From: Takakia lepidozioides
Taxonomy: Eukaryota; Plantae; Bryophyta
Length of the DNA stretch: 64,000 nucleotides
Assembly (NCBI GenBank): GCA_030704615.1
Contig: CM060731.1
Span: forward strand, 14,818,001 to 14,882,000
Direction: 5' to 3'
This document shows, piece after piece, positions 23,315 to 62,034 of the stretch. The notes below the pieces were generated by a model that worked only from the letters and a program-made list of their open reading frames with translations, was not told the DNA's origin and searched no databases. The position numbers and the translations under genes are program-made. Position 1 is the first letter of the stretch. Each line of letters opens with the position of its first letter.

Positions 23315-24930
23315 GAGGGTAGCTACCGTAGTTCACGTGAGCACGCTCACGCTTTAAGTGGTAAACGTGAGCAAAATCCCTTAAGCGTGAGCGGATTGCA
23401 AGCATGAGCAGATTAGTGAATGGGATCCTACAACCGAGGGAAGAAGATGGCCTATTGCCATGGACAAAAAATACACTGCACGGACGCAATCTCCACCCCA
23501 TCCGACGGAAGAATCCTTGGTGGGTGACGACCATATGGTACGAATGTGCGATTAAAAGTTGCCGGATGAATGGTTTTGAGATGAATGAAAAAAAGAATGG
23601 ATGAATGTTGGATGACTTTTGGATGAAAAAATGAGCGACATGAATGAACCATGGTGCGTGTGCAAGTGCTCGAGATTAAGGTGTCGTCAACGACATCTTA
23701 ATTCCCAGTACGAGTGGGCACATGACAGCTTACGGAAAAACCAAAATCCCCGAATTTTGTTTCCCAAAAACATTAACCAAAAAAATTTCAACCCAAAAAA
23801 CTTTCAAGGCGAAGAAGCCTTAGCGGTAAGGCGGTGTGTGTGCAGGTGGTGGGGATTAAGGTGTCGTCAACGACATCTTAATTCCCAGCAAGTTTTCAAA
23901 TATATATATATATCCGTTTTCTTTTTTTTCTTTTTCTTTTTCTTTCTGTGCCAGATTAAGGTGTCGTCAACGCCATCTTAATTCCCAGCAAGTTTTCCCT
24001 AATATATATTAAAAAAAACGTTGTTTTTTTTTTTTTGTTCATCCAAAAAATTTCAACCCACAAAAATCTGATGGCGAACAAGCCTTGGCGGTAAGGCGGT
24101 GTGTGTGCAGGTGCTGGGTTAAGGTGTCGTCAACGACATCTTAATTCCCAGTACGAGTTGGCATATGACAATTCATGAAAAAATCAAAAACCCCAAAAAA
24201 ATTCACCCAAAAAAATCTGATGGCGAACGAGCCTTGGCGGTAAGGCGGTGTGTGTGCAGGTGCTAGGGATTAAGGTGTCGTCAACGACATCTTAATTCCC
24301 AGTACGAGTTGGCATATGACAATTCATGGAAAAATCAAAAACCCCAAAAAAATTCACCCAAAAAAATCTGATGGCGAACGAGCCTTGGCGGTAAGGCGGT
24401 GTGTATGCAGGTGCTAGTAAGGTGTCGTCAACGACATCTTAATTCCTAGTACATGTTTTGAAATGTTTATTTATAAAGCACGAGTTCACCTCTCTGCCTT
24501 CTTTAGATTTGGGTGTGAGCATTTCTCTCAACCTTGGATACCTGGAAAAATGACAAGTAACCCCTCCTCAATCCACAAGGCAATGTGGATTCATTGTTGG
24601 CAATATACACTGCACTTTCACAATTGATTTGCAAGCAAGACTAGCATGGTTTAAAGGATTTCGGAGCTCCGGGGATTTCGGAGCTACTACTACAAAACAA
24701 CTTTGTATTATTTCATTTATTTCATTCATCCATGTCTCATTCATCATACAGACATTCATCCGCCATTCATCCCTCATTCATCCCAGCAGCATCCACAACC
24801 GAGCTTGTAATACTGGCCACTATGCGTAGTAATAGGTCTTCTAAGTCGAGTAGGCGCCCGCGGTTATAGAGCAGATTTCTGCTCACGGATTTTTCTGCTC
24901 ACGGGATCTGCTCACAGAATAGCATCCCCC
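23315..24930. mobile_element. Non-autonomous Mutator-like element
   Basis: 9-bp TSD ggtagcttg (23306-23314) / ggtagcctg (24931-24939); G-rich termini; inverted subterminal gtgagca/tgctcac and ggatgaa/ttcatcc motifs; left end is homologous to the MULE terminus at ~56710. Confidence 0.6.
23676..24450 (+). repeat. Tandem repeat (100-180-bp units) with a 26-bp palindrome
   Basis: ttaaggtgtcgtcaacgacatcttaa occurs 6 times (about 23676, 23857, 23956, 24119, 24270, 24418). Confidence 0.85.
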
Positions 24931-26485
24931 GGTAGCCTGTGCCGTTGGCCTAAGTGTTCGATGTCATCTAAGTCCAAATGCATTTTTTTTCCACAGAGCC
25001 TACGACCAGATTTGAACCGGAGACCTTTCCATTGATATCTCTCCCGTCGAGGCTCCAACCATTGTCCCAGGAATGCCCACTGTGCCATTTTTGCTATTTT
25101 TTGTGAATTTTCGGCGACCAAAAATACTTGAAATGCCACATCTCCCACACCGCAGGTCCAAAAACCGTGAGACCAAGCCGGTGCACCCCTCCTCGTCAAG
25201 GGCTTTCCAACGGTACCAAGCATCAGCGCTGGGGCCTCCCGGTTTGGGACATCTCAACGCTATAAAACAAAACAAAACAAAACAAACAAACAAACAAAAG
25301 TTTCGATCCATATATTGATATGATTGTGTACAATAGGCTCATATTTACGCTAGCTTCGGCTGGCGTCATATATATATATATATATATATATAGGTTATGT
25401 GGTGGCAATGTCGAAAACTTGTTTTGATTGTTTTCATTAGACTTGTCATCCATGAGCTCTGACTGCAACCTGCCAAGTGTCAGATGTAATCTAATAATAA
25501 TTTTCTAATTTTCTAATCTTTTAATATTCTAGTGAGTTGGAGACTAGTTTTAGCATAGGCAAAAATAGGTAATGTCACATCATCATTATCAGCCATATCA
25601 TCAATGTCTGTTTTATGGAAGCTGCTAGAACTGTACGACTTGTCCAAAACAAAAGAAAAAAAACCCAAAAAAATGAAGAAGAAAAAAAATGTATTGTATT
25701 TTTTGGCAACTAGTCCAGCTAATATATGATTGTGTAAAGAGGCTCATATTGACGCTAGCTTCGGTTGGCGTCATATATATAATATATATATATGATTGTG
25801 TAATTGCAGTTATGTAGTTAGTAATAGGAGCATTTTGGACTCGGTCACTTCCCTATGAGATTTGAAATGGACCATTTCAGTCCCAGTCGAAATGGTTGGT
25901 GCTATTACTTTAATAAGATTCACCCCAAAAGAGATTGACTATCGTAGTTGCACTCATTATGAGTTTTTGGTCATAGTTTTGTTGTAGTTTCTCTTCGTTT
26001 CTTCACCAACAGTACTTCAATAGCATTCCTTGACACTCCAACCTTGCTTTTTCTAAAGGATCTTATTCAAGTTGGACAAATTTTGTGGAACTCTTTCAGC
26101 TCATTGATTGTGCTGTAGTGGTAATGTAGCTACTTGCTCCAACCTATGTGGGTGCCATTGTTTTTGTAGGGCTCAAAGTTATGGACAGCCTCCATCAATG
26201 AATGGGTCAGTTGAGTAGCCTAGTCAGCAAGTACATGCAAAACCCTTGATCTGATTCTATCCCTTGGGTTGTTTGTTGTTTGTTTGTTTGTTTAGATCTT
26301 CCAAATGCCCTTAGAAGAGAAGGAGATAAGGTTGCATACAGGTGATTGGGCCGCAAGATTCTAGAAAGAAAGATTCAAGAAATGCTAGACGTCATTCGAT
26401 TCCCTCTTTCTTAACCCAATGTACTTTGAAAGAACTATTGTATATCTTACGTTGAAGGTGTCTTTGGGGGTTTTCACTCTTATAG

Positions 26486-27600: not shown

Positions 27601-28193
27601 GACAGGAATGCAGCAGCGATTCAGGGAGAATTCCAAAGCACCTGAGACAAGGGGAGGTCACTTCCAAATATTACCACTTGATGTGCAAAAAAATATAGGG
27701 TGCCAAAAATTCTGAGAAAATAAAATTTAGAATATATTTAGAAATATTATAGGGTACTAATATATTGGCGGCACCACATTTAAATTAAAATAGGGTCCAA
27801 AATAAAGACGGATTCTTCAAAAAAATTAAAACTAATATAGGGTGGAAATAAATTAAAGGGACATGTGTCGATCAGTGACACACAACGGAGAGGGCATAGG
27901 CGCATGTGCACAACAACCCTAGGCTTCCCTCTCTCCTGTCGGCTGCAATTCGTGGTGACATTGTGCTAGACAGAAAGAAATAAAGGGTTGTGCGCTCAAT
28001 GGTGCAAGCATTGTGGCCCATTGGTTTTGAAGCTTGCAAGGCGTGACAATGGAGAAGCGTAGATTGAGAGGGAAGGATGACAACATAAGCATGCCCATAG
28101 GTTTTGAGGGACATGGTGGATAGGCAGAATACAAAAAATGAGAAGAAAGGTAGGGAGCAGGTGGGAGGTCTCTCGACAACCAGTTGATCTCCT

Positions 28194-28545
28194 TGTCAAG
28201 TTAAATAAGCACAGTGTGAAAACAACTAGAATAAAGCTAGTTATTTATATTTAACACTTGGATTTAGGTCAAGTGTTAAGTCAGGTGTCAAGTTTAGTTT
28301 GACACCTGAACCGCCTTATCTTCACAAGAGCGGCAGTCGCGCAGCTCATCTCTCTCGAGTTGAGCCTGCGCGACCGAGCTCCTTCATCGTTTAGAACTGA
28401 GTGTACTTATGATGGGAGGATAGGTTGTTGTGGGGTGGAGTCCCCATAGCTTGGGGTGCCCCTGGCTCGACTATTATCTGAAAGAGTGATGATGAGATGG
28501 ATTTCATGTTTTTTGTGTTAAGAGTGTGTTTCTAGTTTTCTATCA
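28194..28545 (+). repeat. 5' LTR segment B (352 bp; lacks the 85-bp segment A)
   Basis: Near-identical to 38713-39064 (about 6 transitions by eye); followed by PBS ctcgagagagat. Confidence 0.92.
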
Positions 28546-28739
28546 CTCGAGAGAGATCAGCCGTCTATCTAGTTTTCTAGTGCCAAGCTAGATATGATGT
28601 TTTTGTTTTTAAGCACTATTATAATATAGATGGTCATGGTCTTGTACACAGCTCAAGCAATGAGCATAGAATGGCTCTAGCTTGAGTTCGTCTCACATCC
28701 TCAGTCGCAATGGTGGGACTCGGGGGGTATAGGTAGAGT

Positions 28740-30398
28740 GGTTGAAGCACGGCAGCAGCTCGGCCATGGCTGCCTGCCACTTTCAAGCTTCTTCACACTG
28801 CAGCCTGCGCGCATGGAGACGAACTCCGTAACCGCGTCCTATGCTCCCATTTGTCAGGGAGGCTCCAATGAGAGGGTGAGGCCGCAGCGCAGGGGATGGA
28901 TCGAACGGAAGCTGGATTGGATTGAGAGGCATATCAGGAGTGGACGATCGCACGGCATAAGAACACAGCTACGAGTGGTTAAGGCGTGTGCCTGCTAAGT
29001 ACATTGGAGTAGAGCACGTTGATCACGCTCGCAAATTAGCTATTCAAGCCGTTCAGGCTATTCGTGTGTGGCTTGATCTCACCAGCCTGCCTACCACCTG
29101 TGTCGGGGGGCTTGTTACACCACTGCGTGTATATGCTGGGATTCTTGCAGGTGATGAGTTCCATGCCTTAGTGTTTGGTTTTCTCCATTGGGGCGATTTT
29201 GCTGCAGCAGACGTGAATGATGTTATCTTTGCCGAAGGCATCCCTGAGAGCAGCTTCTGTAACCTCCTGGGAATGCAGCGGGTCGAAGTTGTTTACAACC
29301 AGCGTAAGTGCATCCCTCTCTGCCACTATCTCCTGGGGGTGGCGGCAAGACCTGTCGGGCTGCCTCGGCGGGTACGCAGCTGCGGCCTGATGAGGGTGTG
29401 GTCGATGCGGACTTCCATTTCCAGCATCCGTTTGTGTATCTATGGAAGCTAAGTAGATAAAATAATTTTGTTGTCAGGGCCTGGCTTGTGTACGTTCATG
29501 ATTTCGAACTCGTCACCGTGGTAGTACGCTTCCATGAAGAAGTGCATTGTGAGCTTGTAACGGATGGTGCCCAGCAGTGTCTCACTGTTCAAGTAAAGAG
29601 AGAGGTAGTCCGGGGATGCCAGCACGTCAAAGGCCTTTTCAATTTTACATTGCAGCCTGATCCCGGAAGCCATCTCCATAACAAAGGCCCTGTTGTTCTT
29701 GAGCAGCGCAATCCCGTCAGCGGTCGGGTTCAGCAGCTCGACTGCCCGATTCGGGGTCGACGTTCATGCCCTTTGGAAGCTGGGTGAGTAGGTACAGCTG
29801 CCCATCTTTCCCATCTGGTCTAACAGCAGGGAAGAATAGCTGTGGGACGTGAGGGAAGGCCTTGAGGCAGTGGCGCATTTCGTGAATTTCTAAGGCCCGA
29901 AGGCCCAACTTCTGAAGCTCTGCCGTTGTCCTCGTTTCAGTGAAGAAGGGCAATTGCGCATCGTGGGCATGTTTCTCGAGGGCAGGATAGCCCATCCACA
30001 GTTGGCGCGTAGAAAATGAGTTGGGGGTGCATATGTGACAGATCTGGAGCAACTCCTTGTGACTTCTTGGGGTTAGAGTAAGAGCTGCCCATATCACTGT
30101 TGATCGTGCTAGAAGCGCGTTTGTTATTCAGGCAGCTGCCAGCCAGGGGAGCGATGGGAGTGTTTGGGTCGTGGCCCACCCTGTCCATTGCCATATTCCA
30201 TGTCGAGCGGGTTTGGTATGTCTGTTTTGTTGCAAAGAAGTGCTTGTCAGACAGATGTATATCGCTGACGTCGGCATCTTCCTCTTCGGGAGCATCCATA
30301 GAAGTAGCGTTGGCTGCATGGGAGGAATCAGTACGAATTGTAATCCAAGGTGGGCCATGGACTTGAGCAGCCAGCTTGCGAGATGCAGAGCAGTTCAC
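28740..30398 (-). pseudogene. Decayed antisense extra ORF inside the Gypsy element, unknown function
   Basis: Chain of minus-strand ORF pieces (29937-30398, 29717-30097, 29449-29679, 29053-29241) with protein-like composition, between the 5' LTR and gag. Confidence 0.4.
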
Positions 30399-31038
30399 CG
30401 GTGTATGTTCGAAACACCTGTAGGTGAAATCCAGGGAATCTGTGGTGAGAACTACATGAACACGTTTGGAACCTGTTAAGATAACGTGGGAACAACGTTT
30501 AATGGCAAGAACGTTTTGGTGTTAAAATTTTATTTATTTTTTATTTTAAAATAAAAATAAAAATAAATAAAATAAACCCTTTTTGATCTAATTTCAATGA
30601 TTTAGAGCCTAATTGGTCATATCTTTGTCAAATGGACTCCGTTTGACTCAGTTTTTGGGGGGATAGCTGTAGAAAGGGGAAATCTACCTATCTAGACCTG
30701 GTTTTTGTTTTTGGGACTCTGCTAAAAATCTATGGAATTTTTAGAGTGTGAGTGTGCCATGAAAGATCCACAATTCTGTTTCTAGAACCTGTTCTGGTCT
30801 ATATGAGAGACAAATCTGTGGATGGCCTTCTTGTATGGCTGGGGGAAATGAGGACGTAATTGAAGGGCATGTTTCTTTTCATAGCATGTGCACCCAAGGG
30901 GACAAGATTTATGTCTCTCAAGGAACTCAGACTGATTTGAGTGGAGAACAGTTGGATGAGTTGATTGCATACTAAGAGTCAGGCATTAGCAGTATACAAC
31001 AAACTGTTGTAGTTGGCATTGAGGGCCTCAATGTTGCT

Positions 31039-31596
31039 TTGGACAGTCAGAACTCTGTTGGAGCCAGCAGTTCTGCAGCTGTAAGTGAAATACCAAAGTG
31101 GGTGAAAGCTAGGCTTGGAACACAGCCAAAGACAGCCCCGGGGACCAAGGTGTTCAGCCACAAGGCTGTGGTGTACTGGAGCAGAGGAACAGGAGCTACA
31201 CAAGTTTGTGCAATCAGACATGGTTGCAGCCGGACACACTCTGCACAAGGCAACCATGAGCGGGGATTCATTAGCAATGACAAGTTTGTTTTGCTTGATG
31301 GAGATGCAGTCATTCACAATGAGGACACCCGCAACCGTCTCAAAGCTTTCGAGTTGAGAGACTATCAGACCCTACCTTTGTTTTATTTAGTGTTCAGTGA
31401 ACGGGAGATAGGGGAGTATTACTTTGTCTCTACCTGGCAGAAAGATGAGGAGGGTTGGTTAGAGCGAGCGACTATAGCTTGGGACAAGGTTAGTGGCAGG
31501 TTTCTGGACATAGATATACCTCCTACACCTTACCATCATGCAGAGCGAGGCACTTTTGAGAGAAGTCTGGTAGTTGATAGCATAGATCAGGATTAG
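31039..31596 (+). CDS. Extra ORF upstream of gag, unknown function
   Basis: 185 open codons of globular composition; start uncertain (TTG); lies within the element. Confidence 0.45.
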   Translation: MDSQNSVGASSSAAVSEIPKWVKARLGTQPKTAPGTKVFSHKAVVYWSRGTGATQVCAIRHGCSRTHSAQGNHERGFISNDKFVLLDGDAVIHNEDTRNRLKAFELRDYQTLPLFYLVFSEREIGEYYFVSTWQKDEEGWLERATIAWDKVSGRFLDIDIPPTPYHHAERGTFERSLVVDSIDQD

Positions 31597-32064
31597 ATCT
31601 TGCTTGGTCGATCTTCTATTCTTCCCCTCCATCTCTGTACTATTCTCATTACCTTGTACTTGTAGTTGCCAAAGCCTCTCTTGCTGGAGGCCAGTCAGTC
31701 CGGGGTTGTGGGCTGGGATATTCTGCAGGGTCAGCATTGCAGCTTGATTTTGGTGTGGGGGTGTTGATGTTTTGATTTCTTGTGTTTGGATCCCCCCCAA
31801 CACCTGCATGCTTGACTGTGAGCCATGGTTGTTTTGTGTGGGCGCTTGCTTTCATAGGGATTAGGCCGGATTTGATCACCGGTCAATCATAGAGTATGCT
31901 GTCGGTGGTGAGGCTGGAGTGATGACCAGCAAGACCACCAGTGTTTCTTCTATGGTGAGACTGGGTTGATGACCAGCCAACCATAGGAGTTCTTGCGGTG
32001 GATGCAGGTGCAGGTGCCCTGAGCCACTGGGATATGACCCTTAAACTGCAACAAGTGCCCACCC

Positions 32065-33567
32065 GTGTCACTATTAGAATTAATACTAGAGCCTTATAGT
32101 GTCACGTGGGGGGAGGTACACATTGTGAGTGTCATCACGGAGTTACCCAAGGGTTTTGAGGGGAGTACGGCTACGGGCAGTAACAGTGAAAGTGGGTTCA
32201 CAAGACGAGGTATTCGGTTCAGACCACCTTCACCTCCACCCTCAACTAGTGCAGAGTCAGACACAGACTCGGAGGCTTCATCAACAGGTGTGCAGTTTCA
32301 TTCGCCATTGTTGTGGGACGACATGGAGGAGATGTATGGAGCTACCAAGGGGCCTCGTAGGTACTCTGGAGCTGTGGGCACAATTGAGCTGGATGACTTT
32401 ATCCAGGAGTTCGACAGCTGGTGTGATTTGCAGCAGATGCGCAATCCACAGCTGTTCACCCCATTCATGGCGTGGAAGGGACTGTTCCAGCATTTGGAAG
32501 GCCCGCCTATGGACGATTACCACGAGTTCAGGCGAGGACATGAAGCAGAGATTGAGGAGTGGAGGATGTATTGGTTACCTGACTACGTCTCCATTACTCG
32601 AGGCACGACGCGACCAGTAGCTGCATCAGTACCAATATCTCCTACTGCCAGCACTAGTAGTGGAACAAGTAGTGCCGGTACTTCTGCAGGTGGTTCCAGT
32701 TCAAAAGGTGCTACTACTCCTCCTGCCATGACTACAACACATGTGCCTAGATTCAACCCGGTGGTGGAGTTCTTCCAGGAGTTGCGGAGGAACTACCAAG
32801 GTGTACGGACAGAGAAGCTGCGAGGTTTGCAAGACTTCCAGCACAAACCCAGTGAGAGCTTGCGAGAGGCCTACACTCGTATGAGGCGCTTGATAAGTGT
32901 GACCCAAGGGGTTACTGAAGCTCAGGCAATCCAGTTCTGGTATGGAATTTTGGACAAGGAGCTCAGGAGAAGGGTGCGGGATGCAACCCTGTTACAAGCA
33001 GCCCAACCCACATTAGCAGATGTGTTTCTGCTGGCTGAGCGGATTGAGCTCAACATAGTGGAGGAGCGAGTTGTTACCATTGGATTTAGCAAAGACATGC
33101 ATGCACGAGGTGCACCTACCAGCCCACAGGCAGAAGGGACTGCCCAACAACGTGGTCAGGGGGGCAAGGTTTCCCAACCCAAGTTCCATGGAGCTTACAA
33201 GGGACCTCAGGTGCAGAGGCCCGTGGCATCTTTTGCAGGCCAACAGCAACCAGGGGTGATATGTTAGACATGTGGAGGATCCCATGTCAAGAGAGATTGC
33301 CCAGAGAGTGGCAAAAGGCCGGCACAAGCACAGCCTGCACAGTTGCAGTGTGGGCATTGTGGCAAGTATGGGCATGGAGATGCCCAGTGTTATGAGTTGC
33401 GCCAGGCCAGTTCCAAGGGAACAATGGTGGCCGGGGGCGAGGTGGACCAGCCCAGAGAGGACGAGGTGGTCGGGCACGAGGTGCAGGCCAAGGGCAAGCT
33501 CAACATGGCCAAGGACGCGGAGGTCAAGGTGTTGACCAAGGCATGGCCAACCGGCTTCAGCAGCTAG
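32065..33567 (+). pseudogene. Gag with two CCHC zinc knuckles
   Basis: Capsid-like YSG...LDDFIQEFDSWC and QHKPSESLREAYTRM; knuckles C*TCGGSHVKRDC and CGHCGKYGHGDAQC; TAG at 33265-33267. Confidence 0.85.
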
Positions 33568-33636
33568 AGCAGAGGCTCGCTGCCATGGCTACAGCTCAGG
33601 CGGGATGGTCCACCTCCTGCGCCTGAGGGAGGAGAT

Positions 33637-35025
33637 ATGGGAGGCATGGGATTCATGTGCAAAGCAACACTACCACTAGAGCAGGTGGAGTCTGCTGCAG
33701 CCGTGACTCGAGGAATAGCACGAGTTCCTGAGCCACGAGGTGCAGAGGTGGAATTGGATTCACATCGTGGGGAGGCAAGCTGTCAGGCGAGGCTTCCTCA
33801 ATCATTCACATTGACAGAGACAGTGTCGACGCCATCCATGGCACCTAGTTCTTGCCTGACTGTTACCGAGGCGGAGGTTACTATGCCATTGGGGAGAGCT
33901 ACACGTGCAGCACTGACACTTGCTGCCAAGGCTAGTGCAGCCGGTGTGTTGTTGGGGGCAGCCACCTCTGTGTGTCAAGCCCCACTGTTCTCGGCAACCA
34001 TGATTGCGACGCCGGGGGTAAGACCAACTGCAGTGTTCAGACTAGCAGCAACACTCTGCGAGAGTAGGGAGGTCACTTCATCTTCTGCGGAATTACTGGA
34101 ACGTATAGTGGCAGAGGGATCCTCGGATTTGAGGGTCAAGACTGCCACGGCTACACCATGGCAAGCTGCAGCTGCGAGGTTGACGGATCTGCCAGCTAGG
34201 CCAGCCTTTGAGCGCGCCATGGTGACACCTGGAGTTGTCTTGTTAGACAACCAGGGAGGCATTTTCACTTTGAGTGGACCGGCAGGCAAGAAGTACCGGC
34301 CACTGCGGGTCCTGTTGGACTCAAGAGCTCAGCCACTGATGTTGGGCAGAGCTGCTATTGCAGGTTTGGGCCTCATGGAGGCGGATATGGAGCCTTGTCC
34401 TTTCCAGATACACACATCTCTGGGAGGATCAGAGCAGGCTCGGGGCATGACACGGCGTGAGTTGGCCATTGGACTACAAGCAGATCATCCTGTAGATGGC
34501 TCAGTGATGCGAGCCAAGGCCATTGTAACGGACGTAGTCTCTTACGATGTCTTCGTTGGTGGGGCAGTGTTATACCCCATGGGTTTCACCCTGGAATTTT
34601 GGGAGGAGTCAGCATTCTACAGGCCTGGCTGGCAGTCAGGGGATGGTCGTCGTGCACAACTCCCTGTGACATTCATTGGGAGTATTGCGGCTGCCCAGCG
34701 GGGCGAGATGCCAATACTAGCCGCCTTTACAATTGCAGTTACTTGGCCTGGAGAGTTGCTGGAAGGCAATGCCCATGCAGAGGATGTGCCACCTCCAGCA
34801 GAACGGGATGACATGCATGGTATGGCGCAGTTGCCTGCCATGGTTGCTCACACTCCATTGTGGGGTACGAGCAAGGATTTGCAGCAGGCTGCTGATGGAC
34901 GGGTGCAACAAACTTGGGTAGAAGCTTTCGTACCGTCAGGGGAGGAGGAGAGTGGGGTGATTGCACCAGGACCACCCCAGTTGTCGCCATTGGACACCAC
35001 ACCTCTTGTGTGGCAACGCCCGGAT
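33637..35025 (+). pseudogene. Pol N-terminus with aspartic protease
   Basis: VLLDSRAQPLM (DSG to DSR mutation) ... YDVFVGG retropepsin motifs. Confidence 0.8.
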
Positions 35026-35965
35026 GAAGGCATATGCCTTCTGGACTTGTTTGGCGGGATCAGCACTGGATTGGCTGCAGTGCTGCAGGCAGGTGTACGA
35101 GTTCGACGTTACCTGTATGTGGAGAGGGATGAGACTGCATGATGGGTCTCACTGCGCCATGTTGCTTAGTTGGTACAGCAATACCCTGACTTGTTGCCAG
35201 TGTCTGCAGTTCGTGGATACCAACAAGCCTTGTCAGCAGACATTTCCTTGCTGGGGGCGCAGGATTTGGAGCAGGTTGGCTCCATTGATCTGGTAGTGGC
35301 AGGTTGGCCCTGCCAAGGGCATTCATCAGCCGGGCATGGCAATGGATTGCGAGACTCGAGGACGGGTCTGTTTTGGGAGATGGTGCGGATTTTACGCTAC
35401 TTGCAACTTCATCAAGCTGTATCTCCAACATACATCTTGGAGAATGTGCCACTGATGGATGATTCTCGGGCCAGGGTGATGGCCAGTGTGCATCAAGTCC
35501 GGTCGTGGCTTGGGTCAGCAGTGTTGCTGGATGCAGCTACAGTGGGGTCACGGGCTCATCGTCCACGGTTTTGGTGGACTAACTTGATGCCACCCGCACT
35601 ACTCAAGCGTGCATTTGATGGGGTGCAGGCGGCCAGCACACCTCACCGTGGATGGCATTTTGGACACAGGGAAGCAGTCTCAACGTGTGAGACACAATGA
35701 CCGTTCGCCTTTGGCAGTGGTCAACATGGTGGGTCAACCACGAGCAGCATTACCTACACTGCTCAGCTTCCCAGGATCCCATGCTTTTCGGGATGGTGGA
35801 CCTGGCCTCCTGTGGGATGCTCAGTTGCAACAGTTAGTGGAGCCTAATGCCGACGAGCGAGAGCGGGCTATGGGGTTTTCCACTGGGATCACGGCGGTGT
35901 CTTATCTTTCTGAGGCATCACGTCGTCAGGTGTTGGGGCAAGCAATGGATCTCAATTGCTTGACC
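35026..35965 (+). pseudogene. DNMT3-like C5 cytosine DNA methyltransferase domain embedded in pol
   Basis: Motifs in canonical order: I LLDLFGGI, II YVERD, IV DLVVAGWPCQGHS (catalytic Cys codon 35311-35313), V RTGLFWE, VI ILENV, VIII AHRPRFWWTNL, IX ERERAMGF, X RRQVLGQAMD. Two premature stops (35140, 35167) and one frameshift (~35625). Confidence 0.92.
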
Positions 35966-36394
35966 TGGATTATCAGCTTGGCTATGGCTGAGCAACGTAG
36001 AGTGCGGAGTGCACTTCCCTTGACGGTCTCTCTGCCTACCGAGACGGTACAGGCAGCGAGTGGGGGCAGGCCGGTGAGGACCACGGGGTGTAGACATCCA
36101 TGGCACACGTGGGAGGTGCTCGAGGTCCAGAGGGAGTTGGCAGCCAAGGCAGCTGTGATAGATGAGGTTGGGGATTCTTCTCGGGTTGAGGAGGTTCTCA
36201 ATGATGAGATGATGGGGCAGGATGAGGCCTTGTCATTGATTGAGCATGAAAGGAGTACTGCTCAAGAGGTTGCAGCATAGCAACCACGGGACGCGTCCTC
36301 TACCTCTAAGCCCACTGGACTTAAGGTTGCAGTTACGGAGGACAATTGGGAGCCTGACATTGGACCCATTGTCACCGGAGGAGAGAGACGACGT

Positions 36395-37789
36395 ATGCGG
36401 CGGTTCCCGAGGGCTTACAGGAATTGCTTTGCCTTCAGTTTGAAAGACTTGGGAGCACTCAAGGGTCAAGAGATAAGTATTGAGTTGGCCACCGACACGC
36501 CAATCTTTCGGAGACCCTATAGATACAGTGACATGGAGAGGTCTTTGATTCAGATGAGGGCGCAAGATCTCTGGGAGGCAGGTTTGGTGGAGCTCTCTGG
36601 TGGAGAGTATGCTTCAGCCACAGTGATGCCAGCCAAGAAGGATGTCTATGACAATTGGACGGAGAGACGTATGTGCGGTGATTACCGGCCTGTAAATCGT
36701 CAGACCAAGTCCGATAGGTATGCCATGCCGACACCAGAGGAGATCTTTGATGCCATTGGGCATTCCAAGGTCTTTAGCACGTTGGATTTACGATCCGGAT
36801 ATCACCAATTGCCGATCAAGGAGGCGGATAAGCAAAAGACGACATTCTGGGGGATCAATGAGCACGGGAAGGATTGCCTATACCAGTGGCGGTTCTTACC
36901 ATTTGGGCTTAAAAACGCTCCTGCTGAGTTTCAAAGAGTCATGGACAGGATTCTAGCAGGGGTGGAGTTTGCTCGATGCTACATAGATGACATCATCATC
37001 TTTAGTGCTACGGTGGAGGAGCATGAGAGACATCTTCAGGGGGTATTTGAGCGCTTGAGGATGCACGGATTGAAGTTACATCCGGGCAAGTGCAAGTTTT
37101 TCCACAACCAGATTGAATATCTGGGTCACATGATATATCCTGGAGGATTGGGGGTACAGCAGACTAAGGTAGAGTCCATTGCACAGGTTCCACGCCCTAC
37201 GGATGTGAGCCGAGTTCGAGCTTTCATGGGGTTAGCAAACTATTACAGACGGTTTGTTAAGGGATTTAGTGCCATTGCAAAGGCTCTAACCAAGCTGACC
37301 AAGGTGGACCAGGAGTGGCAATGGGAAGATGAGCAAGAACAAGCTTTTCAAGAGCTCAAGGCGAGGTTGACCTCGGCGCCCATCTTGAGACGACCTATCA
37401 GGGGGCGTCCTTTTCAGCTGCATACAGATTGGAGCATGTTGGGGCTTGGAGCGGTGCTCACACAGGTGGATGATGAGGGAAGAGAGTTCGTAGTGGCTTA
37501 TACTAGCCGCTCGAACAACGCTGCAGAGTCTAAGTATAGCTCATATGAGGGAGAATGCTTAGCTGCAGTGTGGGCCGTGGCACACTTCAGGTGCTATCTA
37601 TACGGCAATCTCTTCACCCTTGTCACGGATCACCAACCACTCAAGTGGTTGATGGAGTCAGACAAGCTTACGGGGAAGCTTGCACGGTGGGCACTCATCC
37701 TTCAAGAGTATGACTTTCAGGTGGTGCATCGACCGGGTTTGGTCAATCGCAATGCAGATGGGTTGAGTCGCAATCCATGCACGAGCTAG
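36395..37789 (+). pseudogene. Ty3/Gypsy reverse transcriptase + RNase H
   Basis: RMCGDYRPVN, LDLRSGYHQ, LPFGLKNAPAEFQ, YIDDIII; RNase H LHTDWS...YEGECLA...TDHQPL...ADGLSR. Same frame as the DNMT C-terminal half. Confidence 0.95.
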
Positions 37790-37834
37790 CAGGATGACAC
37801 TAGAGCTCGGTGGCATGGTGAGACGGACGAGGAG

Positions 37835-38342
37835 ATGGTGCCCGGATGGCATGCATCTGCATTTCTGTGTATCTTGGCAGCGGAAGGCCAGGTTGGACCT
37901 ACAACAGGGATGACTGTAGATCAAGTGTCTGAGGACCCTGAGGCCAGCAATGAGCAGGGTGGCGCCAAAGATATACATGAGGATTTAGTTGTGTTGGACT
38001 ACCTCCGCAGTGGAGACACGGCAGCCACTGTGACTGCCAAGGAGAGGGATCGGATCCTACAACGAGCCAAGAGGTTCAGGTGGGAGGGGACACACCTGCT
38101 CCGAGTGTGGGAGGATGGTCGAATGAGGATTGTGCCTCATCCAACACAGCGGGCACGGTTAGTGCGGCATGCCCATGAGGAGTTGGGGCATTTTGGGGTG
38201 CGACGCACTCATAGTCTACTGCAGGGGCAGTATTGGTGGCGTGGTATGCACACAGAGGTGCAACAATTTGTGGCTAGGTGCATGGTGTGTGATAGGGTGC
38301 GTGCTTCATTCAACGCCCCTACTCCACAATTGCACCCTCTTC
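37835..38342 (+). pseudogene. Integrase N-terminal HHCC zinc domain; DDE core deleted
   Basis: AHEELGHFG...YWWRGM...CMVCDR...LHPLP, then an abrupt switch to 3' UTR sequence. Confidence 0.88.
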
Positions 38343-38625
38343 CGAGGAGTAGTGGGAGTGGATAGTGGGAGTGGATACAACCATGGAAGGCTAACAAGAA
38401 ACGCAAGGCCCAGCTACTAGGTGACCTTGAACACACGAGGTCCTGGCTCAAGTTCACAGATTGCAAGACGGCGACTAACGATGGGGCTACTCTTGTACCC
38501 GGCCTCTTGGTCTATAGAGTTTGAGTGCAATAGGGGCAGTGATAGAGGACTTAGTACGGCTGTGGCTATTACATCTTGTAGCTATCTGGAGGTAGAGGGA
38601 CCTACCCACCAGCTATGGGGGCGAT

Positions 38626-39150
38626 TGTGACAGACTACTTTATTGTGCATATATATGTGGTGTGGTTTGGACAGCGATGTAGTTGTGTAGCGATACGTAT
38701 GCGCACGACAGCTGTCAAGTTAAATAAGCATAGTGTGAAAACAACTAGAATAAAGCTAGTTATTTGTATTTAACACTTGGATTTAGGTCAAGTGTTAAGT
38801 CAGGTGTCAAGTTTAGTTTGACACCTGAACCGTCTTATCTTCACGAGAGCGGCAGTCGCGCAGCTCATCTCTCTCGAGTTGAGCCTACGCGACCGAGCTC
38901 CTTCATCGTTTAGAACTGAGTGTACTTATGATGGGAGGATAGGTTGTTGTGGGGTGGAGTCCCCATAGCTTGGGGTGCCCCTGGCTCGACTATTATCTGA
39001 AAGAGTGATGATGAGATGGATTTCATGTTTCTTGTGTTAAGAGTGTGTTTCTAGTTTTCTATCATTGTGACAGACTACTTTATTGTGCATATATGTGTGG
39101 TGTGGTTTGGACAGCGATGTAGTTGTGTAGCAATACGTATGCGCACGACA
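38626..39150 (+). repeat. 3' LTR (A 38626-38710, gc, B 38713-39064) plus an extra copy of A (39066-39150)
   Basis: The two A copies are 85 bp each with 2 differences by eye; B matches 28194-28545. Confidence 0.92.
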
Positions 39151-39368
39151 TCCTTAACAAACCAGCCACAACAATCATGGTGCTTCTCAACTACTTCTCA
39201 AAATCTAGAGGGCATCTGAAATTCAAATATGATGTAACTGACAGCAAATGGATAGACATAAATTCGATTATTAGTTCAGTTACTATGAGATTTGATTTTG
39301 CTCAGAACCTTTATACTTTAAATGATGCTGATGCATCTACTTTGGATAAATTTGTTTCCAGCAAATAA
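39151..39368 (+). pseudogene. 3' part of an unknown ORF interrupted by the Gypsy insertion
   Basis: Removing the element and one TSD copy restores an open frame, ...RQPVDLLNKPATTIMVLLNYFSKSRGHLKFKYDV...; the 5' part (~27870-28193) is degenerate. Confidence 0.5.
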
Positions 39369-41244: not shown

Positions 41245-43061
41245 AAGCCTGAAAGGTACATTGAGGAAAAAATAACCTCATAAAAGTGCCATAGAAGCAA
41301 AAAAATGTTTTTTTGGCTATTAGCTCCTAGTGCAAAATGGCCATGAGTTTAAGTAATAAGTTAATACATTAGTTATTAATAATATGAGCAAATATATTAG
41401 AAACTATCGAAATACAAAAAGATTCTGCCACTGCCAAAATAATTAAGGTAGTTTGTAATTATTTTAACTGTAATAAAGATATTAAACATAACCAAATCTG
41501 ACACGTTTGTTTGCAAATATGTTGGAATAAAAAAAATAATGAAGACATTGACATGTATTTTAGCGGCCATGAGTTTTACTAGAATTTATAGATTAGATTA
41601 TTGCTTAATGTTGGGAACTATACAAATGTAACCAACTGAATAATGAGGCAACTAATCTGGAATTATTTGACACATACACAACCTACGGCATTTCAGTTTT
41701 TCTGAAAATGTATGGGAGGAGTTCTAAAATCATTAATTAAGACGTGAATCTAGAACGCCAGTATTTTCTTATTTTTCTCTAATATTAAGTTTAACATATC
41801 ATGTCCGGGATCATGACTCGGATGCTAACCAATAAATTATGGCTTCACTCATTTATGAGTAACGGTTTGTTGTATGCTTATGGTAGATTTGGAGTTGCAG
41901 TTGATTGTAAGTTGATGTTTAGTGCTGATTCATTAGTTAGTTCACTAGTAAAGATTTCAAAAGCACAGCTGCATGATGCTAGCTATCCATCTATCTCGCT
42001 ATACTCTAGGATTTTTGGGACTTGATGAAGGCAACTGCAGGGAGAGTGGCCAAGCCTATAGAAATTCCACAAACAGGGGAGCTCGCAGGGGAGCTGCTCG
42101 GAGGTGTTGCTGAGCAGCTCATAGACGCACAAAAACGAACGTAATCTGGTGTTATTCCTTCATGTATCATGTGAGCACAAATGTCCCGCCGAGGTCCTGC
42201 CGACATAGTGTTCTCAAATTCTCATGTCCTCGCTGACCGCTGCCGTGGCTCCGGCGTAGTCTGGTAAGTAGTTTGTTTCCAACACTCTCTCTCTTCCTGT
42301 GTCTGCGAACCCCCAATCCTAACGTATTTACGTTCGTCGAAAAGAGGCAACCTGACCTGTCTAGCTTGGACTCATTCCAAACTCATGCGTGCATGGAAAG
42401 TTCAGGCTTTCCTGGTGTTGTTTCCGGACACCAATGGTGCAGTTGTAAAGACAATCTCTTTCATTTACAAAGTTTACTGGTTCTCTTGTTGAGCTCAAGA
42501 AGTAACAATTTGACGACTTGTTAATGATTTCACATCTGATCTCCATCTGATAACGGAGACCTTGAAGGTTTAAACAACTGCTCCGAACATTTATGAACTC
42601 CTCTAATTTAACTCTGTCCCTTTGTTTGTATCGCAGCTGTTTTTCAGGTGGATTTCATCAATCCAAGTGATATCCGTAGGCTCACATGTGCACAAAAATG
42701 TCAATACTTTAGGAAAGATACGAGGGCTGTAGTGTAGATGTAAGTAATTTCCCACGATACTATGAAGTAGACATAATAAACATGAGCACTGTGCTCGAAA
42801 AATTTGGATATCTTTCAAGTGTTATGTACCTAACTCATACTCGATTTAGGGTAATCCAATGCAATCTTAGTTATCACTCTTGACGTGATGTGGCGCTAAC
42901 ACGTCGGCTGTCACGTCACGTCGAATCCGGAGGTTTACACATATAAGTTTTTTTACATTTGACTTTTACGATTTACTTCTACCATTTCTAATGACATAGC
43001 AGCCACGGTGTAAAACAGACATGACCAATTATTAATATTTATTAATTCATTTTAAAAAATA

Positions 43062-44080
43062 CGTCCGCCTATATTGGCGGTCGCTTACAATTTTATATTT
43101 ATTAAATCAAACGACCGCCCATATTGGCGGTCGCTTGTAATTTAATATTTTGTTAAATTGAGCGACCGCCTATATTGGCAGTCGTCGGTTATTTATTAAT
43201 TTATAAATGAAGTGACCGCCCATATTGGCAGTCGCTTGTATTTTTTTATATTTTAAAATAAGCGACCGCCTATATTGGCGGTTGCTTGAAGTTTATTATG
43301 TTTTAAATTAAGCGACCGCCTGGATTGGCGGTCGCTTGCAGTTTATTATATTATTATTATTATTATATTTTTAATATATTTTGTAAAAATATGGCGGTTG
43401 CTCTTTTTTCTATTTAAATTTAGCATTCGCCATTTAGCGGCGGTCGCTTATTTTATTTTATTTTAAATAAAGCGATATTTTTATTAATAAAAAATGTAGT
43501 GACTGCCAATTGCCGGCAGTCGCTTATTTGATTTTGATTCTTAAATATAGTGACCGCCGTTTGGCGGTCGCTCAATTAATATATTTTAAAAAAATGCAGC
43601 GACCGCCATTTGGCGGCGGTCGTTTTTTATTTATTTTGAATCTTGAATTAAGCGACCGCCGTTTGGTTGTCGTTTATTAAATATATTTCTAAAAAATGCA
43701 GGGACCGCCATGGGGCGGTCGTTTTTTTATATTTTGAATCTCGAATTAAGCGACCGCCAAATGGCAGTCGCTTATTAAATAAAATGAAGCGACCGCCATG
43801 TGGCGGTCGCTTTTATTTTAATAAAAACTTTAGCGACCGCCATTTGGCAACTGTCGTTTTTTATTTATTAAGCGACTGCCAAACGGCGGTAGTTTATTTA
43901 ATATATTTTTAAAAAATGCAGCGACCGCCATGTTGCGGTCGCTCTTATTTTCTTTTAAAATATAGCGACCGCCATGTGGCGGTCGCTTTTATTTGTTTTT
44001 AAAATATAGCGACCGTCATGCGGCGGTCGCGTGTTTTTGTTTATTTTTGGAAATCCAGAGACCTGTCGTGTGGCGATCGT
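43062..44080. repeat. Array of ~20 GC-rich palindromes in AT-rich spacers
   Basis: Consensus agcgaccgcc-N4-6-ggcggtcgct at ~40-50-bp periodicity. Confidence 0.85.
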
Positions 44081-45216
44081 TTTGTTTTTTTTAATCATGA
44101 AGCGGCACCTAGCCAGCCACATGGCGAGGCCCCACGGGTCAAGAAAAACGAAACAAATGGGAGGGGGGGTGCAGGTGGTTTTGAACCCTTGACCTCTCCC
44201 ATGGGGGTGTGCGTGGTTGTAGCAGGATAGAATCTAGAAGGTTCTAGATGGAAGATGAAAGTTCCCTAGAAGTTTTCAGAATAATTAGGAAGGTTCCTAA
44301 GAAGTTTGACTTAAGGAATTTTGATTTGAGGCTCTCAAGTCAAACCTATTCATATTATGGAGAGTAGGTCAAATCTTTGATAAAGTCATTTTATGGAGAA
44401 TATGTCAAACCTAGGAAGGTTGACTTTAGAAAGTTTTGACTTGAGGCTCTCAAGTCAAACCTTTAAAATAATCATATTGTGAAGGGTATATAAACGTGCA
44501 ATGAAAGCCTAGAAGGCATCGAGTTGTTTTGGGAAAAAATTGAAAAGTATTTCTATTTTAGTTTGTGTAGATCTTGGGTGTCACAATGGTATCATAGCCA
44601 AGTTTTGCTTAAAGTTGGGAGTGAATACCCTCTTTAGGAGGATTCGATTAAGATGTTTTTTTAAGAGATTTTTGTTGTTAATAATTTTAAATGTTAAATA
44701 GATAGTAGTGATGGTGCATCATAACGATAGTATCAAAATTTTATGGACTTAAATCAACCATTTTTCTGTGATTTTCCTTCGGAGTGTGAGTTTAAAATTA
44801 TATGTCGTCGTAAGGCAGAAATTAGAGATATGATATTGGAGAGGAACAATATCAAGAAGTGTTAACGACATGTCGTCTTTCCTATAATTAGAAATTGGAA
44901 GGTATACATATGTGTATATACATAGTTCATGGATCGAGGTAGATATTTTCCACCTAATTTTCCACCGCCAAATGTATTTAGTATCAATGTGCGCGCCATC
45001 GACAAACATCATCTTGTAAGATTTTTAGTTGCAAAATTTGGAATAGAATTCATGAACCTTGTCATGAGTTCAAACGTCCCTTTTGTATTACCAATAGTCA
45101 CGTACGGGATGGTTTGGGATTGCACTATTTACAGACTGTATTATGATAAGAAAATAGAGATAATATACATTAATCTTAGAAGATAAACACCACGAAAGAA
45201 AGAGTAATGGAGGAAG

Positions 45217-46289
45217 ATGGCGGACAATGAAAAAATGATAGACAACGCACACACTACCCATCAAGCCAATGATCAGATGGTGTGGATAATGGAGCGCTTA
45301 CACGAATTGCATAATGCTCTTGTCACAACCCAACAACAAAACAACGTGTTGATGGAGGAGCTTAAACAAGTAAGACAATTAACCGCCCCGGGACTGGTTG
45401 CTAGTGGGTCGGATACGTTACTGCAAAAAATGACCAAGACATGCAAGGTCGAGCCGTCTAAAGGAAGTTGCGTCATGGGTGATGGATTTATCGAATGGAG
45501 GTACATCTGTCATATTTCCCTACATCAAGTGATTTGGACCACGGAATGTTCATACGATCTTTTCTACTCGACAATGCTTAAACATGGTTATAGACATGGG
45601 AGAGAAGTCAGATTGCAAAAGGAGAACTTTTATTATGGAGCACCTTGAAAGCGGGACTGCTCCAACAATTCAAGGCAGTAGATGCTGTTACAACTGCTCG
45701 AATGAAATTATGGAATTTAGAACAACGCGGGAGTGTGCAAAATTACATTGAAGATTTTTTGAATCTTCAGGTCCAAATCGAAGACGTGAGTCCTGCAGAA
45801 GCTTTAGACAACTTCAAAAGAGAATTGAAGAAAAAAATTCAAGGAGTGGTAATTTTACGCAACTCGGTTGATGTCCACGAAGCAATTTCATTGGCCCAAA
45901 AGATTGAGGGGACGCTACCAAGATACGACAAAGGTATATACGTTCTATTGAACCAGTACGGACCAACGCCTATGGAGCTTGGAAATCTTCGAAGACGGGA
46001 TAACTTCCAATACTCTCAAAGAAATAGGTCGGGAATCAGATATGGGGAAGATAACACACAATGGCAAATAAAATTGAATGACAAGGATGTGACCTCCTCA
46101 ACATTCTCACGAACAGAAGGACAAAGGGAAACTAGACAATGTTACAACTGTGGAAAATTCGGACATCTTGCGGCCAACTGCCGAAGTGGAAGGTACAATC
46201 GACAAACTTATCGAAGACCTCTTAACAGTTTAAGGAGAGGAGAAGATAACGAACATCACAATGAGCAGGAAAACGAGGACAACCAGTAA
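45217..46289 (+). pseudogene. Chromovirus gag (frameshifted) with CCHC knuckle
   Basis: LEQRGSVQNYIEDF, GPTPMELG, CYNCGKFGHLAANC. Confidence 0.85.
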
Positions 46290-47707
46290 GTAGACCTCGC
46301 GGTCTTACTGGTTTTACAAAGAAGAGGAAAAGTGAGGGGCTCTACAAGGAGAAGAGACAAATCAATCATGCGGGCAAGAAAGAGACGCAGTTAATTGTGG
46401 CAGATGGAACCTTGGAAGGTATTCATGTGAGAGTGTTGATAGACCCTGGGGCAACATAAAACTTCTTATTTAGAAAGGCTGCCTTGAAACTAGGACTCCC
46501 CTTAGAAAAAGATGAAAGAGAAGAAGTAGAAATGCCAAATGGACATACAGAGGCTATTGAGACATTACCTAAAAGCATAAAGTTGTCGATCGATAAATAT
46601 AGAGAAATCTTATAATGACGAGTGGTCAAACTGGCTCGATATGACGTAATATTAGGCATGCCTTAGATGGAATCTCACAACCCCGATGTTGATTGGCGTC
46701 GAAAGATAGTCAAAACCCAGAATTGGAAAATATGGTGAGATCGAGTGAGGACACCATATCGAAACCTACCATCATTTGTTATAGGTACTACAACTATATG
46801 TAAGAAAGACGTAATATTTGTAGGGCAAGAGCGTCATCCATAAAATAAGAAACACAAGGTCACAGGCAAGGCCGTGAACCGATTATTCTTCATTCATGTA
46901 AGTCATAGCTCCACGCACAAAACACGTGCGGACCAGGACAGACGGGAGGTCTCCCATCCCAATTAGCGATACACATCAGGCATAGCCAAATTAAATTGAG
47001 GGGTAAACATGTACAAGTTACAACAACCCACCAAAGCCATAAGAGAATGAGGGGTCTGACAGGAACAAACACAAATAGAAAGGCAAAGAGGATGGGAGGT
47101 TTCCCGTCCTTACTCACGCTCTCTAGTCTAAAAGAGTCTGACGGGTGTGATGACGAAACCAAAACATGCACATAGTCAGGTAGGGGAGATCTCCCGTGAT
47201 GATACCTCTCATATCGACATGAGTAATGAAATCCAAAACCGAACAAAGCCTACACAGAAACATAGAGCACAGCCATGGTATCCATCGCTCTGACATGAAA
47301 TGAATAAAAAACAATGAATCATTTGTATTCATAATTTGCGCTTAGAGAATAGCCTCATTGTCAATGTACATTATTTATAATATCCCAGTTGGTGGAAGAC
47401 TGTCACCCGGCTAGTAAGAACGGGTAGCGGATTCTACTCTCATCCCAGATCTCCCCATATGGACATTCCATTGCCCTGCATCTGTTTGAGGGCGTTGTGC
47501 TCGCGAACAGATCTCCTCCTCAGAAATACTCATATACCTGCAGAGACCCTCATGGCCTGTTGGTGTGGTATGTCCATCCTTCTTCTTGTCGGATGTTGAT
47601 TTCATACGACGCTTGGCCTTGACTTCCAGTCGATCCCGGTTTTTTGACTTTTACGACTAAAAATGAGTCGTTACCCCAGTGGTAAATGACACGAATGCTT
47701 CTAGTGA

Positions 47708-54865: not shown

Positions 54866-55260
54866 TTGTCTCACTGTTTATATTTGTAATGTTCCAAGGT
54901 GCAAGCTGATAGGGCTTTGAGAAAATGATGTATTAGTTCCGTACGAGTTAAACAACTAACGTCCCACACCTCATTTGGATGTGCGACACTACCATGTGAG
55001 GCATGAGTCTGTAAGTAACATGTGCACATGCGGCCTTCGAAGTCCGAACGTGCGATACTAGTCCAGCAAATGCTTTGCTGGAACGTCCGGAGGTCGCATG
55101 TACACCTATTACTTAGTGACTCATGCCTCACATGGTAGTGTCACGCATAAAAATGAGATATGAAACGTAAGTTGTCTAAAACCTATGGAACCAATACATC
55201 GTTTTTCTCAGAACCTTGTCAGAAACATTGGAACATTGGAACATACAAACAGTGACACAG
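54866..55260. repeat. Long imperfect inverted repeat (hairpin 1)
   Basis: Perfect 25-bp core at 54985-55009 / 55118-55142; arms extend imperfectly to ~190 bp. Confidence 0.8.
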
Positions 55261-55449
55261 TACACGGCCAGTTTTGTTGAAATGACATCTGTGAGATTCG
55301 AGCGTATGCAATTTATTATTTACAACGAAACTTTATTTACTCGGAAGACCAGTATTGCTGCTGGAGCGCAAGTTGCAACTGATGGATTATGGTGCGAGTT
55401 CTCTATTGATCGCAGTTGTCACAATCAATGTCAACAATCATATTTACGG

Positions 55450-55780
55450 TAAGGTGTTTGATGCTATTGTTGTTCATGTAGCTGAATTCTGTAGTACTCT
55501 TTTTGCTATTCCCATGCCAACAACATCAGGTCCTCTGAGATCGTCATGTTCAAACGAACGTATCAGCCACCCCGGCCAACTTGCAGCCACGACCCACCAT
55601 AAATTGAATGAATTGGAGATTTGGTGCTCAGTTCCTGGTTTCATGTCCGTGGTGGCTGATACAGAATTCGGAATATGGCAGTCCTAGTGGACCTGATGTT
55701 GTTGGCATGAGAATAGCAAAACGATTCCTAAAGAAATCAGCTACATAAACATCGGCAGTTTGGTTATGCAATTCAAAGAC
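55450..55780. repeat. Long imperfect inverted repeat (hairpin 2)
   Basis: 33-bp core with 1 mismatch at 55501-55533 / 55689-55721; extends outward. Confidence 0.8.
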
Positions 55781-62014: not shown

Positions 62015-62034
62015 AAGAAAGAACCATTCAGCGG

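Follow-up and report, generated by a model that had tools for sequence, protein, structure and literature searches.

We report that a 64,000-nucleotide stretch of the Takakia lepidozioides genome (GCA_030704615.1, contig CM060731.1, positions 14,818,001 to 14,882,000; hereafter the window, to which all coordinates refer) holds a decayed Ty3/Gypsy element of 10,957 bp (28194-39150, by self-comparison), a dead copy from a bryophyte retrotransposon family in which a DNMT3-like cytosine methyltransferase (DNMT) closes the Gag-protease open reading frame (ORF). Our reading of this family, to which we assign a probability of about 0.6 as a whole, is that its reverse transcriptase (RT) and integrase (INT) would be made by readthrough of a stop codon behind the methyltransferase, that its circularized DNA would be cut by the integrase at an internal site, and that the methyltransferase would act on the element's own cDNA. 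The 2018 report of such elements had a single Gypsy example, from an alga, and did not settle for what reason retrotransposons retain a DNA methyltransferase; the present family occurs in bryophytes, in both mosses and liverworts, and one of its hosts, Marchantia polymorpha, is a model with methylation mutants, so that the methylase question is directly testable there.

Identity and conservation of the methyltransferase domain

A first-pass annotation of this DNA had placed a full set of C5 methyltransferase motifs between protease (PR) and RT, and all of them are present (35041-35950): LDLFGGI at 35041-35061, GWPCQG at 35302-35319, LENV at 35437-35448, HRPRFWW at 35557-35577, ERERAMGF at 35855-35878 and LGQAMD at 35933-35950. 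Motifs I, IV, VI, VIII, IX and X follow each other in canonical order with their catalytic residues, the N-terminal half in the protease frame and the C-terminal half in the RT frame, just as the annotation had it. In the window copy the domain is interrupted by stops at 35140 and 35167 and by a frameshift near 35628. The annotation had staked its claim on a match to a C5 methyltransferase hidden Markov model, which the open fragment 35170-35697 provides (Pfam DNA_methylase, E = 7.8e-14, 52.3 bits, cut-off 22).

The proposed affinity to DNMT3 is borne out by structure, profile and fold comparisons alike. Among solved structures, the N-terminal half (read with X at its two stops) is closest to DNMT3A and DNMT3B (E = 9e-10), ahead of DRM (1e-4) and HhaI (5e-4); a profile of seven relatives reaches DNMT3A at E = 7.5e-18, compared to 8e-8 for DRM and 3.5e-6 for HaeIII, and aligns motifs IX-X with DNMT3A as well; and a low-confidence predicted model of the domain from the related locus L036 (pLDDT 60.5) has DNMT3A/B as its top Foldseek matches, with a TM of about 0.48. 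The C-terminal half alone has no match in Pfam or PDB and is alignable by profile only. By motifs, profile and fold, DNMT3 is the nearest of the characterized enzymes. In 158 full-length domains the catalytic Cys is kept in 154, the motif VI Glu in all 158 and the two motif VIII Args in 153 and 155. The ratio of nonsynonymous to synonymous substitutions (dN/dS) is 0.10-0.16 for the domain in the least saturated pairs, next to 0.13 for the protease and 0.04 for RT, values that come from L063/L064/L066 pairs only, most other pairs being saturated. The element-borne domains have no introns, and the domain is uninterrupted in loci L008, L036, L063, L064 and L066.

At E<=1e-10, a search with the N-terminal half returned 44 proteins of greater length, among which homologues at 44-73% identity are assigned by name to M. 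polymorpha, Calypogeia fissa and two Sphagnum species; the M. polymorpha gene models Mp4g09160 and Mp8g17980 carry an uninterrupted Gag-PR-DNMT. A metagenome scan gave 79 related loci, all fetched with a DNMT query, so that copies without the domain could not turn up, and many of them near-copies or repeated assemblies of one insertion. The protease lies upstream of the DNMT in 58 of these (14 too short, 7 without), RT follows the DNMT in 54 (22 too short, 3 without), and 19 have all domains. An uninterrupted copy with protease, DNMT and RT, of the kind that the annotation had proposed to look for, is L064 (see below). In a second species, one contig of 5,009 nt spans 34721-38345 without a break.

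The lineage is large, a profile search finding the domain at E<=1e-30 in 402 or more clusters of proteins (50% identity). Among the 164 rows whose domain is of sufficient length, 42 are of type A (PR-DNMT-RT), 82 of type B (RT-RH-DNMT-INT, RH being RNase H) and 40 unassigned. Named type A members include Closterium and those of type B the chlorophytes Hariotina and Scenedesmus, most rows being without a name. No vascular plant and no Physcomitrium protein appears by name among the matches, in searches that were not exhaustive, and a search of IMG/VR gave no relative. The annotation had called for DNMT and RT phylogenies that include host enzymes; both trees, that of the DNMT being confined to element-type domains, give the same split, a single branch separating types A and B in the DNMT tree with support 99 and likewise in the 55-row RT tree, and both recover the same groups. 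In the large type B sister clade (P0038, P0039, P0235 and about 80 others) the order is RT-RH-DNMT-INT-PHD, and one type B relative, P0043, has a G-patch domain between DNMT and integrase. The two orders indicate that the domain moved within Pol between clades A and B. Because dozens of loci and several named genomes share the domain order, the domain is under purifying selection and the trees match, we regard it as nearly certain that the DNMT3-like domain is an integral and selected part of the family and, as first proposed, no secondary insertion.

A conserved stop codon after the methyltransferase

The domain had been described as built into Pol, which we revise: it ends the Gag-protease ORF, and a conserved stop of the leaky type precedes RT. 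In 48 of 49 alignable Sphagnum-like loci, TAG (33) or TAA (15) stands at one position after the DNMT, followed by CAA in 47 and then by CCC in 46. A single in-frame TAG is followed by CAA CCA in the window copy and L036, by CAA CTA in L071/72, by CAG TTA in L063/64 and by CAA TCA in L066, while L065 reads TAG TAG CCA at this junction. UAG-CAR-YYN is conserved in five divergent lineages, between which the protein flanking the stop is not alignable and synonymous positions are almost saturated. All lineages preserve the reading frame and the spacing across the stop, and since YYA stands for Pro, Leu or Ser, the constraint on this codon appears to act at the nucleotide level. L064 is uninterrupted, with a 1369-aa ORF, the stop and a 1047-aa ORF that holds rve (E = 9.8e-14) and a PHD finger; its first Met after the stop comes 117 codons on, inside RT. 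The relatives' Gag-PR-DNMT proteins (uncut, unfused gene models) terminate 78-163 residues past motif X. Three apparent DNMT-RT fusions from Marchantia and Sphagnum (P0014, P0024 and P0036) were considered as stop-free members and rejected: the part of the linker with the stop is missing from them, in what looks like predicted introns.

UAG-CAR-YYA is the readthrough signal of tobacco mosaic virus, with 6-10% readthrough in stable Arabidopsis lines (PMC2754532). We therefore take the stop at 36278-36280 to be a conserved feature and not decay, and think it very probable, from this conservation, that RT, RNase H, integrase and PHD finger are made by readthrough. Because the domain ends the Gag-protease ORF before a leaky-type stop, the methyltransferase would be made at Gag level, and its expected dose shifts there from Pol level.

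Organization of the element

The annotation had given 33637-38342 as the extent of the element, which is far larger (28194-39150). Its repeats are split in the arrangement A...B-A-B, with A1 at the left end and B1-A2-B2 at the right. A 4-bp TCCT duplication adjoins both ends (28190-28193 = 39151-39154), and contigs of runs X1 and X5 connect 28189 directly with 39151, an empty site that may be another allele or a related locus. A 5-bp duplication (start 28195) was ruled out, as relatives have 4 bp and TG...CA ends. The features are as follows.

28190-28193, +: left target-site duplication, same as 39151-39154
28194-28545, +: repeat A1, 352 bp, element left end, begins TGTCA; 98.3% identical to A2, 6 transitions
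28348-28359, +: predicted start of the transcript and 12-nt self-primer; complementary to 28546-28557 without mismatch, the two pairing in the predicted fold
28546-28557, +: predicted primer-binding site of self-priming type, from complementarity; no tRNA-type TGG start
28668-30587, no strand: low-copy insert with antisense ORF fragments, from contig depth; limits approximate
30976-31596, +: 206-aa open frame upstream of gag, possible accessory ORF, in the high-depth part
32323-33390, +: Gag, with zinc-knuckle-like motifs at 33271-33300 and 33349-33390 and a premature stop at 33265
34222-34680, +: aspartic protease-like domain (tblastn; weak Asp_protease_2 matches in relatives)
35023-35960, +: DNMT3-like cytosine methyltransferase domain of C5 type, motifs I-X unpermuted (Pfam, motifs, profile)
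36278-36286, +: conserved in-frame stop with 3' context, TAG CAA CCA, fitting the plant readthrough signal UAG-CAR-YYA
36413-37150, +: reverse transcriptase, YIDD at 36980 (RVT_1, E = 3.5e-32)
37320-37780, +: RNase H (RT_RNaseH, E = 4.9e-36), then a premature stop at 37787
37970-38345, +: integrase zinc finger (Integrase_H2C2, E = 7.8e-17)
38608-38624, +: G-rich polypurine-tract-like site just 5' of B1
38625-38710 (from 38624 by self-comparison), +: repeat B1, 97.7% identical to B2
38707-38716, +: internal palindromic junction GACA-GC-TGTC (right end, two bases, left end)
38713-39064, +: repeat A2, by self-comparison
39065-39150, +: repeat B2, element right end, terminates GACA
39151-39154, +: right target-site duplication

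The Gag match to Retrotrans_gag (E = 0.0047) is under the cut-off, and the protein is homologous to the Gag of Marchantia P0006/P0008. The protease of the window copy has no Pfam match, its flap motif reading DSR (LLDSRA, 34312) in place of the DSG of relatives. That the copy is decayed, as first noted, holds for its premature stops (33265, 35140, 35167 and 37787), its frameshifts (within 33394-33603 and near 35628) and a deletion of about 1.06 kb after 38345, but not for the stop at 36278-36280. Likewise, of the RT-RH-INT content described at first, RT, RNase H and H2C2 match, whereas integrase core and PHD finger were lost with the deletion; X9 record 25 is longer by about 1,060 letters between 38345 and 38359, and the second-species contig keeps this segment.

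The family has the Gag-PR-RT-RH-INT order, DDE integrase, target duplication, and predicted primer site and purine tract of Ty3/Gypsy elements; in place of two complete direct terminal repeats of the long terminal repeat (LTR) kind it has A...B-A-B. In the low-copy insert, summed contig depth is 0.8-2.2e3, like the flanks, versus 2e5-1.2e6 in the element body, contig depth in read runs being no measure of copy number; the insert has no Pfam match above cut-off and no match in the 79 related loci. Its antisense frames are protein-like (30521 to 29053, frameshifted), an AT-rich palindrome lies at 30527-30573, and contigs of X1 and X3 jump over 29147-29475, with GT..AG ends, inside it. The 206-aa frame at 30976-31596 has no Pfam match, is missing from the 79 loci, has Atlas matches of only 0.81, which are uninformative, and is possibly an accessory ORF specific to a subfamily.

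Split repeats, predicted self-priming and junctions

The annotation had noted neither the split repeats nor the self-priming site and the end-like internal junction. The A...B-A-B arrangement or its 3' part recurs in L012, L040, L045, L059, L061, L062 and L070, and the window has a second remnant that shows it. All 12 B1/A2 junctions read (G/A)ACA, a 2-nt spacer and T(G/A)TCA, five of them being the palindrome GACAGCTGTC; the element's ends equal the two halves of the internal junction minus the two middle bases. An exact 4-bp duplication flanks seven of nine elements with both ends in view (L023 has 3 of the 4 bp, L045 none). The second remnant, the 3' part of an element of another subfamily (47707-49604, -), comprises an integrase tail, PHD finger (E = 7e-11), purine tract, B, a GACA-GT-TGTC junction, an A repeat that has a self-priming pair of 13 nt to itself, and a partial second B; it sits nested within a conventional Ty3 element (44217-52709).

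No tRNA-type primer site follows A1 in the window copy. The 12-nt match between 28546-28557 and 28348-28359 has a chance probability of about 2e-5 (12-mer in 352 nt), with none in a random control, and the pairs differ by subfamily: 12 nt in the window copy, 13 nt in the second copy and up to 16 nt in Sphagnum-like loci, where they are often decayed. The G-rich tract ends GGGGGG(C/T)(G/A)A before B1 in 13 of 13 Sphagnum-like loci printed. Ten distinct A2/B2 junctions are available, of which 7 are precise. At the other 3, bases are added, namely the initial 9 nt of the primer site (L041/42), its initial 6 nt (second window copy) and an insert with a purine-tract-like end (L040). End-joining of linear cDNA leaves such remnants, as in retroviral 2-LTR circles. 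Single-B 3' ends (L019, L023, L025, L026 and L030) were considered as insertions of one-repeat circles and rejected, since L030 and L061 share a flank yet differ; they likely arise from assembly collapse.

That the circularized DNA is cut by integrase at the internal site is, on balance, probable, because the junction resembles the element's ends, primer remnants occur at A2/B2 junctions and foamy-virus integrase can cut where two LTRs meet in a palindrome (PMC1180852). For an LTR element with a DDE integrase, insertion via an internal junction would be unusual, and standard LTR finders could miss such elements on account of the split repeats.

Proposed cycle and alternative explanations

In the cycle that we propose, the transcript would begin inside A1 and, as the observed complementarity suggests, prime itself on the site after A1. 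Most ribosomes would halt at the conserved UAG-CAR-YYN and a minority continue; as in Ty3 biology, the protease would release the domains within the particle, which would hold many methyltransferase molecules. Reverse transcription from both primers would give linear B-A-internal-B-A DNA, whose ends would join into the A/B junction, as remnants at 3 of 10 junctions suggest. The DDE integrase would then cut GACA-NN-TGTC in the upstream repeat with the loss of two bases, consistent with the observed ends, and A-internal-B-A-B would be inserted with a 4-bp duplication, the methyltransferase marking the new DNA before or at insertion. Methylation of element cDNA, which the annotation also suggested, is plausible and was already proposed for such elements by de Mendoza (2018; PMC5890265); we consider it the likeliest role of the methyltransferase in the particle, at about even odds. 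The benefit may lie in mimicry of host DNA, shielding from nucleases, shaping of insertion sites together with the PHD finger, or the choice of cut site.

Several observations weigh against this cycle, beginning with the composition of the 79-locus sample described above. For methylation, (i) the element is depleted in CpG/CHG to the same degree as neighbouring sequence, and (ii) the related KnitGypsy-Dnmt3 of Klebsormidium nitens gave no methylation in yeast, a result that its authors call inconclusive (PMC5890265). For readthrough, (iii) P0179 and P0184 continue from DNMT into RT without a stop; (iv) the CAA CCC of 46 of the 49 Sphagnum-like loci is one base (+6) off CAR YYA; and (v) an ATG stands right after CAA CCC in most of these loci, making reinitiation possible. 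For circle cutting, (vi) a two-repeat circle offers two identical cut sites, yet in none of 23 loci where the upstream A can be seen (at most 21 insertions) does a B precede it, as it would in the mirror product A-B-A...B, a polarity for which the cycle does not account; and (vii) the 7 precise A2/B2 junctions could be inherited.

The best-surviving alternative, which we consider unlikely, is that the domain serves mainly to bind DNA or RNA, or that its substrate is not the cDNA but element RNA, the insertion site or host DNA in trans. The inactivity of the Klebsormidium enzyme in yeast (PMC5890265) would fit this, as would the residue before the catalytic Cys, which is often Glu rather than Pro in the wider clade, and Gag-level amounts of enzyme above the need of one cDNA. 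Opposed to a binding module are the near-invariance of the catalytic Cys, Glu and both Args over 158 divergent domains, the nearness of sequence and fold to DNMT3A/B, and the activity of dinoflagellate DIRS Dnmt3 domains, which methylated CG de novo (PMC5890265). Somewhat less likely again is that RT and integrase come from a spliced or separately initiated message and that additional template jumps copy the A/B junction from the RNA, yielding linear cDNA with ready-made ends and no circle. The ATG behind the Sphagnum-like stop, the strict A...B-A-B polarity and the precise junctions would suit it; the frame and spacing kept across the stop, the nucleotide-level constraint on YYA, the lack of a usable ATG in L064 and the primer-site or purine-tract remnants at 3 junctions speak for readthrough and end-joining instead.

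As a more speculative and improbable variant, DNMT and integrase might form a restriction-modification-like pair throughout a green-plant Ty3 lineage: the enzyme would methylate one of the two GACA-GC-TGTC sites on circular cDNA, which have CHG cytosines at the cut, and the integrase would cut only the unprotected one. If true, this would explain both the A...B-A-B polarity and the retention of the domain from chlorophytes to liverworts. Finally, a one-off insertion or capture of a host DNMT3 fragment in a dead element, or an assembly artefact, could appeal to the decay of the window copy and its one unrelated low-copy insert, but is refuted by a domain order shared among dozens of loci and several named genomes under purifying selection, by matching trees, by the absence of introns and by the contiguous contig from a second species.

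Surrounding sequence

The window also holds intron-split plant genes, among them a MADS-box gene with K-domain-like exons at 350-4258 (+), which we take to be MIKC*-like, and a HAD gene at 17471-18709, nearest among named proteins to Sphagnum (68-69%; Physcomitrium 65%), which branches alone among mosses and liverworts in a tree whose placement is not firm; this agrees with a bryophyte host other than Sphagnum or Marchantia. The conventional Ty3 element at 44217-52709 (+) has Gag with a zinc knuckle, RT, integrase and two 380-bp LTRs that are 90% alike (44217-44589 and 52330-52709). Two long overlapping ORFs of 824 and 560 aa at 57132-61129 (-), of which the latter weakly matches a SWIM finger (E = 0.1), look like a Mutator-type transposase. 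A tandem array of ~116-bp units, each with a 40-nt palindrome, occupies 62018-63938, and clusters of short dispersed or tandem repeats lie at 21748-25490, 43049-44047 and 54922-55751, with two hairpin pairs of ~110 nt per arm that resemble miniature inverted-repeat transposable elements or Helitron ends.

Comparison with known systems

The annotation had compared the element with the Gypsy-Dnmt3 of Klebsormidium, and the comparison is apt. KnitGypsy-Dnmt3 shares with our family the Gypsy domains, an unpermuted, intronless Dnmt3-related domain, purifying selection and, according to the legend of Fig. 4c, a DIRS-like repeat layout, like the A...B-A-B seen here (PMC5890265). It differs in that its authors, in the peer-review file, assign DNMT, RT and RNase H to a single ORF, an arrangement also found in P0179, whereas a conserved stop lies between DNMT and RT in bryophytes; and it was described from one alga as a lineage-specific acquisition (PMC5890265), whereas our family occurs in mosses and liverworts. 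In the literature searched, which left most subscription papers, Repbase and theses outside its scope, we found no account of such a family from land plants or chlorophytes, of its readthrough stop or of its end chemistry, and no paper for four Marchantia gene ids. In the portions consulted, later papers speak of 'streptophytes' without naming land plants; the figures and supplement of the 2018 report and the supplements of the 2026 preprint cited below may list further species or the stop. KnitGypsy-Dnmt3 is compared here by description only, since no named Klebsormidium match appeared in the protein searches, where most near relatives are without a name.

DIRS/PAT-type elements integrate by tyrosine recombinase, of which neither L064 ORF has any trace in Pfam, rve being found instead. 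From these elements the bryophyte family is set apart by its DDE integrase with PHD finger, 4-bp duplications and Ty3-type RT, whereas it shares with SymbioDIRS-Dnmt3 the A1...B1-A2-B2 layout and a retroelement-borne Dnmt3 (PMC5890265). The EpiLTRs or DAM-LTRs are likewise LTR elements with a DNA methyltransferase and a chromatin reader, but their DNMT is sister to DNMT4 and accompanied by DAM and a chromodomain; the accessible text of that preprint names 'streptophyte Gypsy-DNMT3' as a separate acquisition and does not mention bryophytes, land plants or embryophytes (bioRxiv 10.64898/2026.05.21.726589). The self-priming chromoviruses Tf1 and Tcn1 also have a primer site complementary to the interior of the upstream repeat (PMC6317226); L064, in place of the chromodomain of the Tcn1 clade, for which Pfam gave no match, has a PHD finger. 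Because Neumann 2019 does not mention PHD, methyltransferase or Marchantia, we assign no REXdb clade. Physcomitrium DNMT3b has an unpermuted DNMT3-type catalytic domain like that of the element, but host DNMT3 genes are multi-exon and free-standing (PMC6453930), whereas the element domain is intronless and embedded. The foamy-virus integrase substrate is a palindrome formed end to end (PMC1180852), whereas in the bryophyte family the repeat itself contains the palindrome, so that each insertion retains it.

In-frame gag-pol stops occur in Tca2, RIRE2 and SIRE1. The stop of the bryophyte family comes not after Gag but after protease and DNMT. With tobamoviruses, the family shares the same 3' hexanucleotide after an in-frame UAG (PMC2754532).

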